Source: Chloroflexia bacterium | Lineage (GTDB): Bacteria > Chloroflexota > Chloroflexia > QHBQ01 > JADMIH01 | NCBI GenBank assembly: GCA_036388595.1 | Contig: DASVRN010000269.1 | Coordinates: 1,628-65,627, forward strand | Length of the DNA: 64,000 nucleotides | Direction: 5' to 3' | Shown here: piece by piece, positions 1,236 through 62,919 of the stretch | How the letters are laid out: the number at the start of each line of letters is the position of its first letter | How positions within the stretch are numbered: position 1 is the first letter of the stretch | The notes under the pieces: model-generated | Databases searched by the model: none | What the model was told of the DNA's origin: nothing | The model's input: the letters and a program-made list of their open reading frames with translations, nothing else | Made by a program: the position numbers and the translations under genes

Positions 1236-1418
1236 GGACGATGGACGATGGACGATGGACGATGGACGATGGACGATGGTAGGAGACGAAAACGCCAAGA
1301 CGCAAAGGACGCGCAGAGATTAGGGTTGTTTGGGAAGGGTGCTATCTTCTACTTGGTCCTCAGTCCTCAGACCTCAGTCCTCATCACTCCTATCGTCCAT
1401 CGTCCATCGTCCGTCGTC
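1236..1418. repeat. MITE-like intergenic element, copy A: (GATGGAC)n heptamer run at left end, (GTCCATC)n at right end, conserved internal core
   Basis: Seen directly: gacgatggacgatggacgatggacgatgg...ggagacgaaaacgccaagacgcaaaggacg...ctcatcactcctatcgtccatcgtccatcgtcc; second copy at 15544-15703. Confidence 0.6.
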
Positions 1419-2862
1419 ACCTTACGTCGTCGGTGTTGTCGCCGAGGCCGCGCGGGTCGGCGGTACCGGGGATGTCGGTGCCTGAGCTGGCCTGGGAGTC
1501 GTCGGTAGGGGTGACGGCGTAGGTTGGCGCGGTATCGACGTCGCTGTTGGAATAGAGGTCGGTGCGGTCTACCTCCTGGCGAGTGCCGGGGCCGTAGCTT
1601 GGGCCTGCTTCGTAGACGTCCACCGTGGCGGGGTCCTGCTGGATGGGCACGGCATCGGTGTCGGTGCGGGCGTACTTGTCCTCCACCGTGGCATCGCGCT
1701 CGTCACCTTGGAGCGACTCCTGCGAGTCAGTGGAGGCCCTACCGCCCATCTCGTACGCCGCCGTATCGGGGGTCGAGCCACGGAAGTCGCCCGACTGGCT
1801 GGCCTGCTCGCCGCCCGCGGTGCCGGTGCCTATGGTAGAGCCGGAGGTACCGTGCCCCGTGGTGACAGGTGTCCCGGCTGTGCCGAAAGTGCCTGTGTCC
1901 GGGTTGATGGCACCCTGAGTGCCTGTCGCCGTGTTCGGATTGGTGCCCTCTGGATTTTCGTTCACGTTGCTATCCTCCTGTCGTTCCAGGTTCGCAATGT
2001 CGGCCCAGGTCTCTTCGTCCTCGGTCAGCCCCGAATATGTCGTCGGCGCGGCATCGGCCTCGGCGGTTGTGGGTGGGTCGGGCAGCGACTCGTACCAGCC
2101 CGCTTCGCCGGTGCTTGCCTCCACGTCGCGCTCTACTTCTTCCTCGGTTGTTACATCGTCAGCCTGCTCGGGCCGGTCGTCACGAGGCTCGTCATCTGCC
2201 ATCCAGGTACCTTGCATATCAGGCTCCTCATCGTCGCGAACCAGTGCCTGCAACCCGCTGAAATCCACGAGCGATGGGGTTGCAGGTTCGGCTTCGTCTA
2301 ATTGCGCGGCCGTAAAGCCGACTACGGGCGTAGGTTCGACTACAGGTGCGCTCGTGACTGCTTCAGTACGCACTTCCCGTCCCCCGCTCGACGCCAGCAG
2401 CTCCTCGACGTACCGCGAGTCAGCTGTGGCGGGCGTACGCACCTGCACCAAAAAGCCGCCTTCCGCGCTGTCCTCCGCTTCTTGTGAGGCCGGGATGCTC
2501 AGCCCCGCCAACCCTCCAACGAGGCCGCCTATGATTGCCCCAAGAAGCATGCCGGTGAGAGTGGCGGCGATCGAGCTGACGCCTGAAGTGGGGCCTTGCC
2601 CCGGCTGTGCCATGCTCCCCAGAGCCATGAACCAGGCTGCCGCGCCTCCCAGCATGGCCCCCAACAATGCGCCAAGCCCCGCAGCGACCAGGACATTCGA
2701 GCCGAGGTCGCGCCCTATCCGGTTTTCGTGTTCGGTGGCTCGCATGACGACGGAGATGTCCTCTGCGGCGTGACCCCTCGAACCCAGGGCTTCCAGCGCG
2801 TCCTCCGCGTCCTCTTCGGTCCGGAAGGCGGCGACTACGGTGCCACCCGGCTCTCTTGACAT
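1417..2862 (-). CDS. YflT/general-stress-protein-like N-domain plus glycine-zipper membrane segment plus about 330-aa acidic T/P/G/D/E-rich disordered tail; start at second ATG (MSREP) because GGAGG lies 9 nt upstream
   Basis: N-terminus GTVVAAFRTEEDAEDALEALGSRGHAAEDISVVM resembles the YflT heat-stress domain; GLGALLGAMLGGAAAWF...LTGMLLGAIIGGLVGGLAGL are glycine zippers; the remainder is low complexity. Confidence 0.5.
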   Translation of the reverse strand: MSREPGGTVVAAFRTEEDAEDALEALGSRGHAAEDISVVMRATEHENRIGRDLGSNVLVAAGLGALLGAMLGGAAAWFMALGSMAQPGQGPTSGVSSIAATLTGMLLGAIIGGLVGGLAGLSIPASQEAEDSAEGGFLVQVRTPATADSRYVEELLASSGGREVRTEAVTSAPVVEPTPVVGFTAAQLDEAEPATPSLVDFSGLQALVRDDEEPDMQGTWMADDEPRDDRPEQADDVTTEEEVERDVEASTGEAGWYESLPDPPTTAEADAAPTTYSGLTEDEETWADIANLERQEDSNVNENPEGTNPNTATGTQGAINPDTGTFGTAGTPVTTGHGTSGSTIGTGTAGGEQASQSGDFRGSTPDTAAYEMGGRASTDSQESLQGDERDATVEDKYARTDTDAVPIQQDPATVDVYEAGPSYGPGTRQEVDRTDLYSNSDVDTAPTYAVTPTDDSQASSGTDIPGTADPRGLGDNTDDVR

Positions 2863-10398: not shown

Positions 10399-10461
10399 AG
10401 TGCATAGTCGCAGGGTGAAGGTGCATAGTCGCAGGGTCAAGGTGCGTAGTCGCCAGGAGAC
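10399..10461. repeat. 21-bp tandem repeat x3 (GGTGCATAGTCGCAGGGTGAA-like) immediately 3' of the LysR gene
   Basis: ggcagtgcatagtcgcagggtgaa / ggtgcatagtcgcagggtcaa / ggtgcgtagtcgccaggagac. Confidence 0.6.
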
Positions 10462-10654
10462 GCCCGTCGACTAAAGTCGAGGGCTATACTCTGCAAAGTC
10501 CCCCTTCGGGGACTGGCTTGTTCTAAGGGCTTCTATCGTGGTGAAAATGTAGCTAAAGCAGTCCGCCGCAGGGCGGACTTTGTAATGTGTAGCCCGCGAT
10601 TTCAATCGACGGGCGTCACCCTGTGACTGATACACAATTTCACCGCTTGCTTCC

Positions 10655-10684
10655 TTGACGCTCCCCGCACCCCTCCTGTACTAT
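10655..10684 (+). promoter_or_regulatory. Candidate sigma70-type promoter TTGACG-18-TACTAT for the CoA ligase gene
   Basis: ttgacg ctccccgcacccctcctg tactat, about 30 nt upstream of the TTG start (RBS GGAGGA at 10707-10712). Confidence 0.4.
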
Positions 10685-10716
10685 GGTGGGACCGCATATC
10701 TCCCACGGAGGAAGCC

Positions 10717-12720
10717 TTGAGCGACCGGCGCATCTTGCAGGTTCCCGCCACAATCCAGATTCCATCTGGGATAGTCAGCCCCCGTGCCCGCGAAATTGCC
10801 TGGCGGCCCAGCCCTGTATACCTGGAACGCTCTCGGTTACGGCGGTTCATGCAGCAGCAGGGCGTCGGCTCGTTCGAGGAGCTTTTGCAGCGCTCGGCGG
10901 CGGACCCGGTCTGGTTCTGGGATGCCACGGTCAAGGACCTGGGATTCGAGTTCTACACTCCCTACACTCAGGTGCTGGATACTAGCCGAGGCTGGGAATG
11001 GGCCACCTGGTTCACGGGCGCGCAGTACAACTACGTACACGACGCCCTGGACAAGCACGCCACAGGTGACAACGCCGACCGCCCCGCCATCATCTTCGAG
11101 GGCGAAGAGGGCGTAATTCGTACGCTGACCTATGCGCAGCTACACGCCGAGGTCTGCCGCTTTGCGAACGGCCTGAAGTCGCTCGGCATAGAGAAGGGCG
11201 ACCGCGTAGGGCTGTTCATGCCGTTCACGCCGGAGGTAGCAATCGCCATGCTGGCCTGCGGCAAGCTGGGGGCTATTTTCATCCCGGTCTTTTCGGGCTA
11301 CGCCGCCCCATCTGTGGCCTCACGTCTGAGCGATTGCGGGGCGAAAGTGCTGGTCACATCGGACGGCTTCACCAGGCGTGGCAAGCCTGTAGCTATGAAG
11401 GAAGTCGCGGATGAAGCAGCGGCCGCCGCGCCGTGTGTCGAGAAGGTGGTGGTGCATAGACGGTTGGGGCGCGACGTTCCCTGGAACCCTGAGCGCGACA
11501 TCTGGTGGGACGACCTTCTAGCGACCCAGGACGACCACCTTGAGACCGAGCGCACCGGGGCCGAAGACCTCTACATGATAATTTACACGTCGGGCACCAC
11601 CGGCAAGCCGAAGGGCGCTCAGCACGTCCACTGTGGCTTCCCAATCAAGGGCGCGCAGGACATGGCCCACTGCTTCGACGTGCAGCCCGGCGACGTCTTC
11701 TTCTGGTTCACCGATATCGGCTGGATGATGGGGCCGTGGGCAATCAGCGGTACGCTCATGCTCGGGGCCACCCTCTTTATGTACGACGGCACGCCCGACT
11801 CCCCCGGACCCGACCGCGTTTGGGCCATGATCGAGCGGCACCGCATCACGCACCTGGGCATCTCGCCCACTGCCATACGCTCCCTCATGGCGCAGGGCGA
11901 CGAGTGGGTGGACAAGCACGACCTGTCTTCGCTGCTGTTCCTGGGGTCTACGGGCGAGCCGTGGAACCCCGACCCCTGGTGGTGGTACTTCCGCAAGATC
12001 GGCGGGAGCCGCTGCCCCATAATCAACTATTCGGGCGGCACCGAGATTTCGGGCGGCATCCTGTCCTGCATCCCGCTTCTGCCCATCAAGCCTTCCTCCT
12101 TCAACTCCCCCGTGCCCGGCATGGCTGCCGACGTTGTGAGCGACACCGGGGAGCCTGTGAGGGGCGCGGTGGGCGAACTGGCGATACGCGGCCCCTGGCC
12201 CGGCATGACGCGTGGCTTCTGGGGCGACCAGGAACGCTACATCGACACCTATTTCTCTAGGATACCAGGGCTGTGGGTGCATGGCGACTGGGCTCAAATT
12301 GACGAACACGGCTACTGGTACATCCTGGGCCGCTCCGACGACACCATCAAGGTGGCAGGCAAGCGACTGGGTCCGGCGGAAGTAGAGTCGGCCGCGGTGA
12401 GCCACTCCCATGTGCGTGAGGCGGCGGCGATAGGGGTGCCGGACGAATTGAAGGGCGAGTCGGTGGTGGTGTTCGCCGTGCTCAGGCCCAACGTCGAGCA
12501 GTCGGACGCGCTACGGGGGGAGATAGCTGCGGCCATAGTGGGGCAGCTTGGCAAGAGTCTTGCACCCAAGAAGGTGCTGTTCGTGAGCGACTTGCCCAAG
12601 ACACGCAACGCCAAGATCATGCGCCGCGTCATACGCGCCCGCTACCTGAACGAGACCCTGGGCGATATTTCCTCTCTTGAGAACCCGGCGGCGGTGGAGG
12701 AGATAGCCAACGCCCGGTGA
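10717..12720 (+). CDS. AMP-forming acyl-CoA synthetase of the acetyl-CoA/acetoacetyl-CoA synthetase family (ACAS_N plus AMP-binding domains); TTG start
   Basis: DPVWFWD N-domain, IIYTSGTTGKPKG P-loop, GWMMGPW, YSGGTEISGG, DDTIKVAGKRL motifs. Confidence 0.75.
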   Translation: MSDRRILQVPATIQIPSGIVSPRAREIAWRPSPVYLERSRLRRFMQQQGVGSFEELLQRSAADPVWFWDATVKDLGFEFYTPYTQVLDTSRGWEWATWFTGAQYNYVHDALDKHATGDNADRPAIIFEGEEGVIRTLTYAQLHAEVCRFANGLKSLGIEKGDRVGLFMPFTPEVAIAMLACGKLGAIFIPVFSGYAAPSVASRLSDCGAKVLVTSDGFTRRGKPVAMKEVADEAAAAAPCVEKVVVHRRLGRDVPWNPERDIWWDDLLATQDDHLETERTGAEDLYMIIYTSGTTGKPKGAQHVHCGFPIKGAQDMAHCFDVQPGDVFFWFTDIGWMMGPWAISGTLMLGATLFMYDGTPDSPGPDRVWAMIERHRITHLGISPTAIRSLMAQGDEWVDKHDLSSLLFLGSTGEPWNPDPWWWYFRKIGGSRCPIINYSGGTEISGGILSCIPLLPIKPSSFNSPVPGMAADVVSDTGEPVRGAVGELAIRGPWPGMTRGFWGDQERYIDTYFSRIPGLWVHGDWAQIDEHGYWYILGRSDDTIKVAGKRLGPAEVESAAVSHSHVREAAAIGVPDELKGESVVVFAVLRPNVEQSDALRGEIAAAIVGQLGKSLAPKKVLFVSDLPKTRNAKIMRRVIRARYLNETLGDISSLENPAAVEEIANAR

Positions 12721-13709: not shown

Positions 13710-14042
13710 TTGCTTACAAGTGAGGAAGTGCGCCACGTCGCCATGCTGGCCCGGCTGGGCTTGTCGGACGAGGAAGTGGAGACGCTACGGAGCCAGCTAG
13801 GGCAGGTGCTGGAATACATCGAGATACTGCAAGGGGTAGATACCTCGGCTGTGGCCCCCACCGCGCAGGTGCTGTCACACGTGAACGTGGTGCGCCCCGA
13901 TAGCTCCAGGCCGTCGCTACCCCCCGGTGAGGCCCTGGTGAACGCCCCCGGCCGCGAAGGCGAGTTCTTCCGCGTGCCTGCCGTGATGGAGGACTTCGAG
14001 GCAGGGAGCACGGGCGGTGGGACCGGAGGCGGCGATGAATAG
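13710..14042 (+). CDS. gatC: Asp/Glu-tRNA amidotransferase subunit C (TTG start, RBS AGGAGA)
   Basis: VRHVAMLARLGLSDEEVETLRSQLGQVLEYIEILQGVDTSAVAPT is the GatC signature. Confidence 0.8.
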   Translation: MLTSEEVRHVAMLARLGLSDEEVETLRSQLGQVLEYIEILQGVDTSAVAPTAQVLSHVNVVRPDSSRPSLPPGEALVNAPGREGEFFRVPAVMEDFEAGSTGGGTGGGDE

Positions 14043-15543
14043 CGCAGTTGGCAGCGAGTCGCTGGCGTTCCTCACCATCCACGAAGCCCGCGACCTGCTG
14101 GACGGAGGGCAGGTCTCCTCAGTGGAGTTGACGGAAGCGGCCCTGGCCCAAATCGATAGCCACGAAGAGCAGGTCCACGCGTTCGTGTCCGTCACCCGAG
14201 AGCGCGCCCTGGAAGCCGCCCACGACTTCGACCGCCGTAGGGCTTCGGGCGGAGGGCCACGCTCCACCCTGGACGGCGTCCCAATGAGCCTCAAGGACGT
14301 GCTGATTACCAGGGATGTGCCTACGACGTGCGGTTCGCGCCACCTTGAGAACTTTTCCCCTCCATTCGACGGCACGGTGCCCGCCAGGCTCATGGAAGCA
14401 GGGGCGGTGCTGCTCGGAAAGAACAATTGCGACGAGTTTGCGATGGGTTCTTCCACGGAGAACTCGGCGTGGGGCGTGAGCCGCAACCCGTGGGACACGT
14501 CGCGCGTGCCGGGCGGCTCCAGCGGAGGGTCGGCGGCGGCCGTGGCGGCAGGCATGGGCCACTACTCGCTCGGCACCGACACCGGCGGGAGCGTGCGCCA
14601 ACCGGCTTCCTTGTGCGGCCTGACCGGGCTAAAGCCAACGTATGGGAGGGTGTCCCGCTACGGCCTGGTGGCCTTCGCTTCCTCTCTCGACCAGATCGGC
14701 CCCTTCACGCGGGACGCTATGGACGCGGCTCTGGTGCTGGAACTCATCGCGGGCCAAGACCCATGCGACTCAACTTCGCAGCCGGTGGAGGTGCCCAGCT
14801 ACAGCACAATCCTTCGCGAGAGCGGAGAATCCCTCAATGGCGTTAGAGTCGGTGTGCGGCGCGGGGCTTTGGATGCTGCGAGTGGCTCAGATGGAGGTCT
14901 AAATCCAGAAGTGGCGGCTGTGGTGCAGTCGGCGGTCACGCAGTTGACGGAGCTTGGTGCCGAGTTGCGCGAGATAGATTTACCCAGCCTCGACTACGCA
15001 CTGGCGGCTTACTACATCATCGCGCCCGCCGAAGCAAGTTCTAATCTTGCTCGCTACGATGGCATGAAGTACGGCTACCGCGATCCAGAGGCACGAAACG
15101 CGGTCAACTCCATGCTGGCAACCCGCGAATACGGCTTCGGACCGGAAGTCAAGCGGCGCATCATGCTAGGCACCTACGCCCTGAGCGCGGGCTACTATGA
15201 GGCGTTCTACAAGAAGGCGCAGCAGGTCCGCACACTGGTGGCCCAGGACTTCAAGCGCGCCTATGAGGACGTGGACGTCATATTGGACCCCACCTCCCCC
15301 ACGGTGGCCTTCAGGATTGGCGAGAAGCTAGACGACCCGCTGGCGATGTACCTCACCGACATCTACACCGTACCGGCCAACCTGGCGGGCGTGCCGGGCG
15401 TCTCGATCCCCTGCGGCTTCTCGGACGGCCTGCCCATTGGCCTGCAAATCCTCGGCAGGCACTTCGATGAAGCTACCATCCTGCGAGTGGCCCACGCCTA
15501 CCAGCAGGTGACCGATTGGCACAGGCAGACACCACGACTTTAG
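14035..15543 (+). CDS. gatA: Glutamyl-tRNA(Gln) amidotransferase subunit A (amidase signature family); start ATG 14035 overlapping the gatC stop
   Basis: GGSSGGSAAAVAAG amidase signature, KDVLITRDVPTTCGSR, LGTDTGGSVRQPAS. Confidence 0.85.
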   Translation: MNSAVGSESLAFLTIHEARDLLDGGQVSSVELTEAALAQIDSHEEQVHAFVSVTRERALEAAHDFDRRRASGGGPRSTLDGVPMSLKDVLITRDVPTTCGSRHLENFSPPFDGTVPARLMEAGAVLLGKNNCDEFAMGSSTENSAWGVSRNPWDTSRVPGGSSGGSAAAVAAGMGHYSLGTDTGGSVRQPASLCGLTGLKPTYGRVSRYGLVAFASSLDQIGPFTRDAMDAALVLELIAGQDPCDSTSQPVEVPSYSTILRESGESLNGVRVGVRRGALDAASGSDGGLNPEVAAVVQSAVTQLTELGAELREIDLPSLDYALAAYYIIAPAEASSNLARYDGMKYGYRDPEARNAVNSMLATREYGFGPEVKRRIMLGTYALSAGYYEAFYKKAQQVRTLVAQDFKRAYEDVDVILDPTSPTVAFRIGEKLDDPLAMYLTDIYTVPANLAGVPGVSIPCGFSDGLPIGLQILGRHFDEATILRVAHAYQQVTDWHRQTPRL

Positions 15544-15703
15544 GATGATGGACGACGGACGATAGACGATAGGAGACGGAACCGCCAGGACGCCAAGGAC
15601 GTAAAGTGCGCGCCAAGTGGATGAAGGGTAGGTAGCAGCACTCTACCTACCCACTACTCAGCCCTCATTCCTCATCACTCCCATCGTCCATCGTCCATCG
15701 TCC
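15544..15703. repeat. MITE-like element copy B, same family as 1236-1418 (GATGGAC-type heptamers at left, GTCCATC x3 at right, shared core GATAGGAGACGgAAcCGCCAgGACGCcAAGGACG)
   Basis: Direct comparison with copy A; the internal segment differs and is itself palindromic (gggtaggtag...ctacctaccc). Confidence 0.6.
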
Positions 15704-15776
15704 AAATCGGGTGCAAAACCACGGCGCGCAACCCCATTTGCTATATACTCTCTTTCGTGCCGGAGTCGAGGGAGAT

Positions 15777-16220
15777 ATGAGCGTCGTATTCAAGCTGCCC
15801 ACAGGTAGGAACAGGTCGTTGTCCACCACCGCTATCTCGGTTGTGCTGGGGCTGTTTGCCTTGCTGTTCCTCGTGCGCTTCGGACAGGAGCTACTGCTGG
15901 AACACGATCTGAACGCCAGGGCAGCAGCGCAACGCCGCGCCAACTCAGCCCTGCGGGACGACAACACCCGGCTGCGAGCCAGCCTCCAATACTTCCAGTC
16001 TACCAAGTACATCGAGCAGCGCGCCCGCGAAGACCTCAACCTGCGTCGGGCCGACGAGGAAGTGCTCATCCCGGTCGGGTTGGATGCTACACTTGCGGGT
16101 GGGCTGGGAGGCACTATGGGGCAGGGTGCGGAGGAGAACGCGACCCGGCAAGAACCGTCGAACTGGGAGAAATGGTTCGGGCTTTTCACCCCCGCAAAGT
16201 CCGCCGACCAGTTTCCTTGA
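15777..16220 (+). CDS. FtsB/DivIC-like septum-formation initiator family protein (single TM plus coiled coil); start at MSVVFK with RBS GGAG
   Basis: N-terminal TM (ISVVLGLFALLFLV) followed by a heptad-rich segment; size and architecture fit the family. Confidence 0.45.
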   Translation: MSVVFKLPTGRNRSLSTTAISVVLGLFALLFLVRFGQELLLEHDLNARAAAQRRANSALRDDNTRLRASLQYFQSTKYIEQRAREDLNLRRADEEVLIPVGLDATLAGGLGGTMGQGAEENATRQEPSNWEKWFGLFTPAKSADQFP

Positions 16221-16256: not shown

Positions 16257-16331
16257 CGCGGGGTGGAGCAGTGGAAGCTCGTTGGGCTCATAACCCAAAG
16301 GCCGTAGGTTCGAATCCTACCCCCGCTACCA
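16257..16331 (+). tRNA. Initiator tRNA-fMet (anticodon CAT), CCA encoded
   Basis: About 85% identical to E. coli tRNA-fMet by eye: CGCGGGGTGGAGCAG...GGGCTCATAACCC...GGTTCGAATCC...CCCCGC; three G:C pairs closing the anticodon stem; C1:U72 mismatch. Confidence 0.9.
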
Positions 16332-18449: not shown

Positions 18450-18521
18450 TGGCGAGGTAGCTCAGTGGCAGAGCAGGGGACTCATAAGCCCTTGGTCGGC
18501 AGTTCAAATCTGCCCCTCGCC
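18450..18521 (+). tRNA. tRNA with CAU anticodon, most likely tRNA-Ile2 (lysidine-modified, k2CAU) rather than elongator Met; CCA not encoded
   Basis: GGCGAGGTAGCTCAGTGGCAGAGCAGGGGACTCATAAGCCCTTGGTCGGCAGTTCAAATCTGCCCCTCGCCA closely resembles E. coli ileX (D arm and TTGGTCG..GGTTCAA.TC T region); it sits immediately 5' of tilS. Confidence 0.8.
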
Positions 18522-18641
18522 ACTTTTGTATTTAAGCCTCCTATACCGCACCCGCCTGCGCAGTCCTCCTCTTGCCCCGGTGCGGCACTCTTCTACTGAA
18601 CATCAACTCCCCTAAGCATTCGTGAGAGGCCGATAGCACTA

Positions 18642-62649: not shown

Positions 62650-62684
62650 GCGTAAGAACCACCGGCAGCACAGTCATTAGAAGC

Positions 62685-62919
62685 TATCTCATAAACCTGG
62701 AGTCTGAGAAGAGAACCCAAAGCCCCACCCTGTCATTTCGAACGTAGTGAGAAATCTCGTCCCTCAGCACCCATGTCTCACCTTTCTCTTGGTTAATCTG
62801 TACTACAACGTACCACAAGAAAGCAGTAACATCCTGGTGAAGGACGAGATTTCTCACTACGTTCGAAATGACATAGGGGGGCTTTGCTGCTCGTATTCGG
62901 TCCGGTATTCATGAGATAG
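62685..62919. repeat. Low-GC palindromic element: perfect 31-bp inverted repeat (62732-62762 / 62842-62872) around a 79-bp spacer that is itself partly palindromic, with shorter outer inverted repeats (ctatctcat / atgagatag)
   Basis: GTCATTTCGAACGTAGTGAGAAATCTCGTCC and its exact reverse complement; local GC about 45% against about 65% background. Confidence 0.65.

Follow-up and report, generated by a model that had tools for sequence, protein, structure and literature searches.

The window analyzed here is a 64,000-nucleotide stretch of a Chloroflexia bacterium genome (contig DASVRN010000269.1), and the subject of this study is a short repeat, copy B, that lies in the interval between gatA and an ftsB-like gene (Table 1). 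The element is neither a gene nor a structured RNA, and is a form of the known small intergenic repeats. A first-pass annotation made from the letters alone had described it as the second copy of a family resembling miniature inverted-repeat transposable elements, or MITEs, lying directly after the gatA stop codon and upstream of the ftsB-like gene. Both positions were confirmed, and the gatA stop codon TAG (15541-15543) proved to overlap the element by one base, its G being also the first G of the left arm. The gatA start codon is uncertain, with called products of 502-519 amino acids. Downstream, the non-coding block at 15709-15749 (GGGTGnAAAACC..GCTATAtACT) is kept in each of the five orthologous loci, irrespective of the insert that precedes it; we infer that it is likely the ftsB promoter region, although the consensus promoter scan did not call the block.

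A family with inverted heptamer arms and a modular interior

Copy B and a second copy in the window, copy A, both carry inverted (GGACGAT)n/(ATCGTCC)n arms, a core of about 47 nt, and the right-end motif CTCATCACTCCy. The left heptamer run (degenerate in copy B), core, and right end that had been matched between the two at first pass are all present in the sequence, and the direct orientation some 14 kb apart agrees with a measured distance of 14.3 kb. The arms of copy B are inverse complements of each other and pair in a predicted fold consisting of a single long hairpin (−72 kcal/mol, z −5.6); copy A is likewise predicted to form a single long hairpin (−97.7 kcal/mol, z −7.2), and the TCA at its end (1417-1419) is the stop codon of a 481-amino-acid gene on the minus strand. 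The likeness of copies A and B is far beyond chance. A degenerate core pattern matched the window twice versus 0.00 matches expected from shuffles, and a two-unit arm pattern matched 13 times versus 0.15 expected. An nhmmer profile of the family recovered just the two full copies in 64 kb, its weaker reverse-strand and partial matches falling inside copies A and B.

Species-representative genomes were scanned with one exact 25-base pattern, the right-end motif CTCATCACTCCNATCGTCCATCGTCC; the left core was not part of the query. The scan returned 38 loci, all in four Chloroflexia metagenome-assembled genomes (MAGs): SMAG_U3335 (26 loci), PEA bin11 (7), PEA bin13 (4), and BP_590 (1). Additional copies without the exact motif were present in loci fetched for comparison, which are designated here by L numbers (L020, L030, L032, L044, L048, L050, and L070). 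When 39 copies were aligned (alignment A4), many columns of the left core were invariant or at least 90% conserved. Since this core was conserved though it had not been used to find the copies, the similarity goes well past the heptamers, and the objection that it might be limited to them, raised in the first-pass annotation, did not hold. Judged by sequence, the window organism is a relative of SMAG_U3335, with 97% identity of the FtsB proteins and 88% nucleotide identity over about 20 kb of colinear sequence; the family belongs to a narrow clade of Chloroflexia from soil and biocrust, all of them uncultured. A core-pattern scan of metagenomes gave one chance-like match, in ordinary sequence without arms, from a collection that evidently lacks the source biocrust samples. 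The right-end motif had 0 matches in viral contigs, and phage and plasmid collections gave no family match. Fourteen stretches of (GGACGAT)3 were seen in viral contigs, a few of them arms-only hairpins or arrays and none with the full element. Four IMG/VR contigs (L054, L055, L059, and L061) carry such arrays or arms-only hairpins, in L055 beside (CACGTTT)n and with a weak and partial match to the family profile (E 8.6e-05); these contigs may represent Chloroflexia phages or mis-binned host DNA.

Copies are 112-252 bp long (median, 174) and share a common layout. The left end consists of 2-12 units of GGACGAT or AGACGAT followed by (GG/AG)TAGGAGACG, and the core of rAAmCGC, an array of 8-9-mers (mAAGrACGC), and a closing GCGCmAAG. 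The center is followed by optional (CCCACTA)n, (CCCGTTA)n, or (CTAACCA)n arrays, and the right end consists of 1-7 units of CTCAGTC, CTCATCACTCCy, and 2-12 units of ATCGTCC. Terminal inverted repeats are present, made up of (GGACGAT)n with rGGAG on the left and CTCCy with (ATCGTCC)n on the right. Toward the outside the arrays run out raggedly in partial units, the unit counts of left and right arms are uncorrelated (rho 0.01), and the 8-mers inside any one copy are nearly all of the CCAAG form or all of the CAAAG form. Pure GGACGAT arrays contain a stop codon in none of the six frames on direct reading. The copies themselves hold no credible open reading frame (ORF); called genes flank the elements and none covers them. 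GGACGAT hairpins composed of arms only also exist, at L035 1504-1557 and L017 2734-2790.

Two center types recur. The type-1 center (TTAGGATTGTT..GTGCTG) was found in 29 copies and the type-2 center (GGATGATGGTTTGG..; GGATGAwGGkTwGG...) in seven, namely, copy B, L027, L031, L033, L034, L039, and L042. Other centers occupy four copies, some with a nested GC hairpin, GGGGCAyG..CGTGCCCC. The first-pass view of a dispersed family, its ends conserved around a modular and variable middle, was borne out. The middle of copy B is internally palindromic over 10 bp, as first noted, but it is not a foreign replacement, being the type-2 center common to six other copies.

The core is shared by copies A and B as had been reported, but it is not exclusive to the family. 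The family profile matched the core alone at many sites in the MAG loci, in inverted pairs that we designate family P. Its layout is (G)AGACGGAAmCGCC(AAGACGCC)n..GCGCCAAGGTTTAGGATTGT, then AAAGGACCAGGGTAC N6 GTACCCTGGTCCTTTT, and then the reverse of the same. Family P lacks heptamer arms. Its ends are the ACGCCAAG-repeat module that also forms the core of the heptamer-armed element, and they enclose a terminator-like hairpin, AAAGGACCAGGGTAC N6 GTACCCTGGTCCTTTT; P copies often lie directly after stop codons. From these core-only pairs it follows that the core plus the type-1 center constitutes one terminal half of P held within heptamer arms. The type-2 center may tentatively be assigned to the other half of family P: the P copy of L043 carries it on its other half and matches exactly, whereas the other P copies match loosely.

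Further repeats were observed in the same loci. Other hairpins of inverted heptamer arrays are built of TGAAACG (13 arrays), GAATTTC/GGAATTT, CGAGTGC/CGAGTTA, AATTACT, TAGTGGT, or GTAATTC units, some with small palindromic elements nested in their loops, and at one orthologous site in two MAGs the units differ by 1-2 bases. The window also contains another palindromic repeat at 10400-10625 (approximately 10455-10617), with inverted ends GGAGACGCCCGTCGA...TCGACGGGCGTCACC and copies in L025, L029, and L037; it is preceded by a 21-mer tandem repeat at 10400-10453. A third palindromic family, with inverted ends of about 35 nt (CCCTGTCATTTCGAACGTAGTGAGAAATCTCGTCC), lies at 62678-62898 and has relatives in L008, L015, L016, L022, L036, L037, and L039.

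Table 1. Coordinates of copies A and B, their flanking features, and related features of other loci (window positions unless a locus is named)
Feature	Position	Strand	Description
Copy B	15543-15703	+	160 bases separating gatA from the ftsB-like gene
Copy B, left arm	15543-15570	+	Four heptamers, GGATGAT GGACGAC GGACGAT AGACGAT
Copy B, core module	15571-15617	+	AGGAGACGGAACCGCCAGGACGCCAAGGACGTAAAGTGCGCGCCAAG; built of AGGAGACGGAAC, then 8-9-mer repeats CGCCAGGA CGCCAAGGA CGTAAAGTG CGCGCCAAG
Copy B, center (type 2)	15618-15652	+	TGGATGAAGGGTAGG...
Copy B, internal palindrome	15626-15635 / 15643-15652	+	GGGTAGGTAG / CTACCTACCC; perfect, 10 bp, within the center
Copy B, right interior	15650-15682	+	Decayed heptamers CCCACTA, CTCAGCC, CTCATTC, then the right-end motif
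Copy B, right-end motif	15671-15682	+	CTCATCACTCCC
Copy B, right arm	15683-15703	+	ATCGTCC x3
Copy A	1236-1419	+	Same family and orientation as copy B, 14.3 kb upstream; six GGACGAT units, core, type-1 center, (CTCAGTC)n, CTCATCACTCCT, ATCGTCC x3 and GTCGTCA
gatA (Amidase family)	14017-15543	+	Preceded by gatC; stop codon touches the copy B left arm
Conserved non-coding block	15709-15749	+	GGGTGCAAAACC...GCTATATACT, just 3' of copy B
ftsB/DivIC-like gene	15777-16220	+	147 amino acids; ATG at 15777, 3' of copy B
Family P, examples	L024 7630-7830; L043 7195-7380; L016 4766-4939 and 6726-6900; L023 5518-5692; L011 4648-4814		
Other heptamer hairpins, examples	L043 4990-5090; L012 5661-5750; L013 4660-4800 versus L019 6191-6300		
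Sigma-54-type motif sites	L035 3100-3330	−	
	L070 ~1750; L071 ~2440		

Occupancy, orientation, and divergence at orthologous sites

At the gatA-ftsB site, SMAG_U3335 (L044) holds a member of the same family at the same junction (TTTAG/GACGAT...) but of another subtype, with CAAAG-type 8-mers, a type-1 center, and barely one right unit compared to copy B. In JALYDY01 (L045; FtsB 91% identical) the site holds an element unrelated to this family; its arms are (TAACGCG)n/(CGCGTTA)n, the TAA of which is the gatA stop codon. No element is present in L046 (FtsB 86%), where GatA is 17 codons longer, and a different palindromic element occupies the site in L047 (FtsB 82%); the latter, GTCATTCTGAGCGTAGCGAAGAATCTCGTCC, is a relative of the repeat at 62678-62898. 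GatA C termini and stop codons are different in each lineage examined, depending on the insert (window 15500-15543 and L044-L047), the proteins ending before the stop codon in TPRL, RPEL, SSLSKE, or TPSLA, or in the 17-codon-longer tail where no element is present; the stop codon after SSLSKE comes from the TAACGCG array. Two tRNA genes lie 3' of the ftsB-like gene in the window (16257-16328 and 18451-18522), and L046 has a PDDEXK_5-domain gene (10538-11050) right after ftsB, where the window has the first tRNA. The first-pass annotation had suggested looking for inversion or deletion of the 14 kb that separate the two copies. Neither was seen; this stretch is colinear with L048 and L044 and with L045-L047.

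At the copy A site, L048 carries the same family in the same orientation, L050 a shorter family member, and L051 a (TAACACG)n-armed element. In L049 (protein 94% identical) it is the core side that adjoins the stop codon, so that the interior is probably inverted relative to window copy A; this inversion is graded only as probable because the contig ends inside the element. The firm case is L027 versus L042, where the flanks are colinear and the interior is clearly inverted. The same orientation was kept in the MAG pairs L013/L019, L031/L041, and L010/L034.

A third site lies at the 3' end of rpoN. SMAG_U3335 has an arms-only hairpin there, and L070 has an arm, the core, and (CTCGCAA)n at the same place; the arms-only and core-bearing forms are allelic, with CAGGGT(G)TCT beside the indel common to both. 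In L071 the position is taken by a (TGAAACG)n element. The site upstream of rpoN is empty in L070. Different heptamer-armed elements, with GGACGAT, TAACrCG, or TGAAACG arms, were found at all three of the sites examined. At L070 3303-3567, the gene caller places the start of the downstream methyltransferase ORF inside the element (ATG in GACAATGGACGAT). No stop codon interrupts this frame across the core and the (CTCGCAA)n array up to the conserved YYDLE region, so that the methyltransferase may have gained an N-terminal extension from the element, or the element may only mimic one. Three lineages have kept a sigma-54-type promoter motif (TGGCAC N5 TTGC) upstream of rpoN itself, and in SMAG_U3335 a composite element lies 3-4 nt upstream of this motif.

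Sequence comparisons showed that the element diverges faster than its surroundings. Identity between orthologous copies was 62-81%, versus 83-96% for the alignable flanks of five of the six pairs; the sixth pair, L034/L010, had one comparable flank, which aligned at only 65%. Orthologous copies were no nearer to one another than to paralogues: in each other's lists of matches their ranks ran from 1st to 33rd, the best matches being mostly paralogues from the same genome, and the center type differed at three of the six orthologous sites. Identity was 0.760 within genomes versus 0.720 between genomes, a difference as extreme in 2 of 2000 permutations, and some paralogues were 95-97% identical. 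The window is of metagenomic origin. An ftsB-like protein identical to its own is encoded on JGI 3300034236 Ga0334938_000162 and four other contigs, with an identical element on all of them, and same-strain assemblies from different samples (four or five) displayed one orientation and identical sequence.

The opposite interior orientations between conserved flanks, in L027 versus L042 and probably in L049 versus window copy A, are what would be expected of a programmed invertible switch (inverton), in which a site-specific recombinase flips the interior and thereby changes expression of a neighboring gene. We consider such a switch highly improbable. Both orientations were seen only between species, with one orientation across same-strain assemblies, and there was no orientation bias relative to neighboring genes. 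Dozens of copies lie beside unrelated housekeeping genes; a sigma-70 promoter scan detected no promoter-like site inside copy A or B, and called-gene tables showed no recombinase gene beside the copies.

Mobility and position at gene ends

Mobile or recombining behavior, as proposed at first pass, is supported by the empty site in L046, the inverted interior of L027/L042, the center differences at three of six sites, and paralogues of up to 97% identity. The narrower designation as a MITE is not. A classical MITE would be moved by non-autonomous cut-and-paste, its heptamer-array ends bound by a transposase encoded elsewhere. A length below about 600 bp, lack of coding capacity, inverted ends, and dozens of dispersed copies fit this description, as do the empty orthologous sites in L046 (gatA) and L070 (upstream of rpoN); the 95-97% identical paralogues suggest recent copying, and the direct 8-9-mers beside one end resemble subterminal transposase-binding sites. 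However, no target-site duplication (TSD) was found: the longest direct repeat in the flanks averaged 2.55 versus a shuffled-flank null of 2.77 ± 0.17, the anchored duplication had a length of 0 in 27 of 38 copies, and offsets allowing for the ragged ends also gave no signal. The array ends are ragged partial units with no fixed terminus, and the two interior ends are unlike each other. About 430 kb of fetched loci contained neither a transposase nor a long element bounded by such ends, the genes called in the neighborhood of the copies included no RAYT-like (REP-associated tyrosine transposase; IS200/IS605-like) gene, phage and plasmid collections gave no match, and the right-end motif gave none in viral contigs. 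Cut-and-paste transposition also does not predict that one site should change its subtype and orientation. Overall, we regard a classical MITE as unlikely: the original observation was confirmed and its interpretation partly supported, in that the family is real and mobile or recombining but is not a demonstrated MITE.

The main functional alternative is a selected RNA element, with the hairpin kept for termination, mRNA 3'-end protection, or slowed translation termination. Repetitive extragenic palindromic (REP) sequences protect mRNA 3' ends in enterobacterial operons, and REPs that lie no further than about 15 nt from a stop codon reportedly affect translation termination (Liang, Rudd and Deutscher 2015). 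The position of the copies suggests such a role. In 23 of 41 copies, a stop-free frame of at least 120 codons ends 5 nt or less from an arm, compared to 2.9% of random genomic positions. The stems are very stable, and all three orthologous gene ends carry different heptamer-armed hairpins by lineage, as though one were required there. Some copies lie between cistrons, 9-25 nt ahead of the next start codon (L016, L024, L030, and L013/L019), and must therefore be transcribed within operons. A bias of inverted heptamer pairs toward stop codons is likewise known from Xanthomonas (PMC4692102).

Against this, copies A and B contain no T-tract and no terminator was called inside them. The genomes have ordinary T-tract terminators, and the element sometimes lies just after one (L023, L036, and L018). 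The gatA site is empty in L046, other copies lie between divergent genes (L011, L035, and L027/L042), and either arm may face the stop codon (13 versus 9). RNAalifold analysis of 39 copies returned 15 pairs, all joining the two ends (arms and adjoining interior bases), with 0 compensatory changes and no conserved interior structure, and the sequence diverges faster than its non-coding flanks. A gathering-threshold scan of the window against Rfam yielded two tRNAs only, and an E-value scan gave noise far below threshold. A selected RNA function is, in our assessment, rather improbable.

Three narrower ideas at the RNA level were set aside. A small RNA or riboregulator was dropped because RNAalifold detected no interior structure or covariation in the 39 copies. 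A sponge for CsrA, suggested by the many GGA motifs, was dropped as well; the stem hides these GGAs, and GGA is missing from other heptamer families of the same genomes. The AGACGAT variant occurs only in left arms, where it would give G-U pairs only on the minus-strand RNA. Arm variants were not used as evidence for the RNA strand, since they are core-proximal and slippage against the adjacent AGGAGACGA suffices to explain them; the element also has no orientation bias relative to genes. No tRNA or tmRNA was found upstream of the copies that follow the GGTTCGAGGC motif. At L036 4150-4227 and L018 ~2700-2800 (minus strand), copies stand just after a shared motif, CTGGTTCGAGGC, with a T-tract terminator hairpin; as no tRNA, tmRNA, or Rfam match was found there, this may be the 3' end of an unannotated small RNA.

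The reading that we prefer, with a probability of roughly 0.55, is that of an intergenic repeat, selfish or neutral, that moves or undergoes recombination and is probably copied by gene conversion through its inverted arms. The element would live where insertion is tolerated, in the short gap that separates a stop codon from the promoter after it. Replication slippage would change the number of units, and recombination or gene conversion with the arms as homology would copy, overwrite, or flip the interior between sites, so that content is overwritten repeatedly from paralogous copies. Since the two arms are mutual reverse complements, a donor could align in either orientation, which would explain insertion and replacement in both. 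Hairpin or cruciform cleavage may start the repair. Long palindromes are known fragile sites (SbcCD cleavage), and it is on this fragility that we infer such a step here. Conversion is further proposed because it needs no TSD and because exchanges of subtype at one site, like the allelism of arms-only and filled states, would follow from it. Transcribed at the end of the gatCA mRNA, copy B would form a very stable hairpin beginning at the stop codon, which could impede 3' exonucleases or read-through. Any such effect on the 3' end of gatCA mRNA would be an incidental side effect, not a conserved function.

Several points weigh against this preferred reading. One is the closeness of stop codons, which lie 5 nt or less from the element in 23 of 41 copies. 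All three orthologous sites examined hold a heptamer-armed hairpin in several lineages; a hairpin could be useful at those sites, which a purely selfish model does not predict. Identity and uniform orientation among the same-strain assemblies indicate that turnover is slow on population time scales. A partner transposase may be encoded elsewhere in genomes of which about 430 kb was searched, and conversion does not account for the colonization of new sites.

A bolder version of the same idea is possible, although we hold it tentatively and at well below even odds: inverted heptamer arrays may serve as orientation-free homology handles, through which cassettes such as half of P home into arms-only hairpins, flip, and replace one another without a transposase, at hot spots at gene 3' ends that are serially reoccupied. 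If true, this would be a recombination-driven form of intragenomic mobility. If the preferred reading of a recombining selfish or neutral repeat holds, this clade would offer a clean natural system for the persistence and spread of small palindromic repeats, with coexisting families of inverted heptamer arrays, one of which captured half of another repeat, and with orthologous sites that are empty, arms-only, filled, flipped, or replaced. It would make testable an old question, namely, whether REP- and MITE-like repeats are moved by dedicated enzymes or kept by recombination at fragile hairpins. In practical terms, the elements break assemblies, can shift stop codons (as at the gatA C terminus), and mislead gene callers (as in L070).

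Comparison with known repeat systems

Several small repeats of other bacteria resemble the element in part; a description of such elements in Chloroflexi was not found in literature searches. The BOX elements of pneumococci (boxA-boxB(n)-boxC) are similarly modular with a variable number of internal units, but they lack heptamer arms and are unrelated in sequence and host. The short tandemly repeated repetitive (STRR) sequences of cyanobacteria are intergenic tandem heptamers of filamentous bacteria; they form mainly direct arrays and are again unrelated in sequence and host to the element described here.

In common with MITEs, the element is short, non-coding, and dispersed, with inverted ends, presence or absence in relatives, and internal repeats of variable number; a MITE with internal tandem repeats is known as the MITE with minisatellite of P. 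gingivalis (PMC4596501). It differs from MITEs in the lack of a TSD, in its slippage-prone, ragged array ends, and in having no known cognate transposase. REPINs and REP-containing bacterial interspersed mosaic elements (REP-BIMEs) are also intergenic doublets that form long hairpins, lie mostly downstream of genes, and evolve within genomes (PMC3116915; PMC3733652). Like REPINs, the present element comes without TSDs and has possible mRNA-stabilizing side effects. REPs are, however, defined as GTAG- or CGTC-tagged imperfect-palindrome units, two of which in inverted arrangement constitute a REPIN (PMC3733652). Because the unit GGACGAT is not a palindrome, the element falls outside this definition; pairing occurs only between two distant arrays, GTAG- or CGTC-tagged stem-loops are absent, and the element is much longer, with an asymmetric interior.

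TAACTGA direct heptamers have been reported in marine Beggiatoaceae, cyanobacteria, and Bacteroidetes (MacGregor 2015, PMC4679880). They too are abundant intergenic heptamer arrays whose origin is unknown and whose phylogenetic spread is patchy. In that system the arrays are direct (with one inverted case), lie just upstream of start codons, and contain stops in all forward frames (PMC4679880), whereas the arrays described here are always inverted pairs, are open in six frames, and are located at the ends of genes.

Among published repeats the nearest analogue is found in Xanthomonas, in the form of convergent (GGGAATC)n pairs, described together with the GGGGAyT repeats of Nostoc by Rehm et al. 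2015 (PMC4692102). Xanthomonas genomes contain 70-75 such convergent pairs each, which can form stem-loops, are mostly intergenic at a mean of 28 nt from the upstream stop codon, and are not conserved at the same genes between related species (PMC4692102). The present family shares with them tandem heptamers of variable unit number, the convergent arrangement, and an intergenic location near an upstream stop codon. The Xanthomonas units are prone to form G-quadruplexes; GGACGAT has no run of three G, and since it lacks a G-tract no G-quadruplex is expected. The host here is a member of the Chloroflexia, and between the arrays all copies have in common a conserved interior about 100 nt long. 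A conserved interior, inversion, or subtype replacement at orthologous sites was not described in the Xanthomonas work (PMC4692102).

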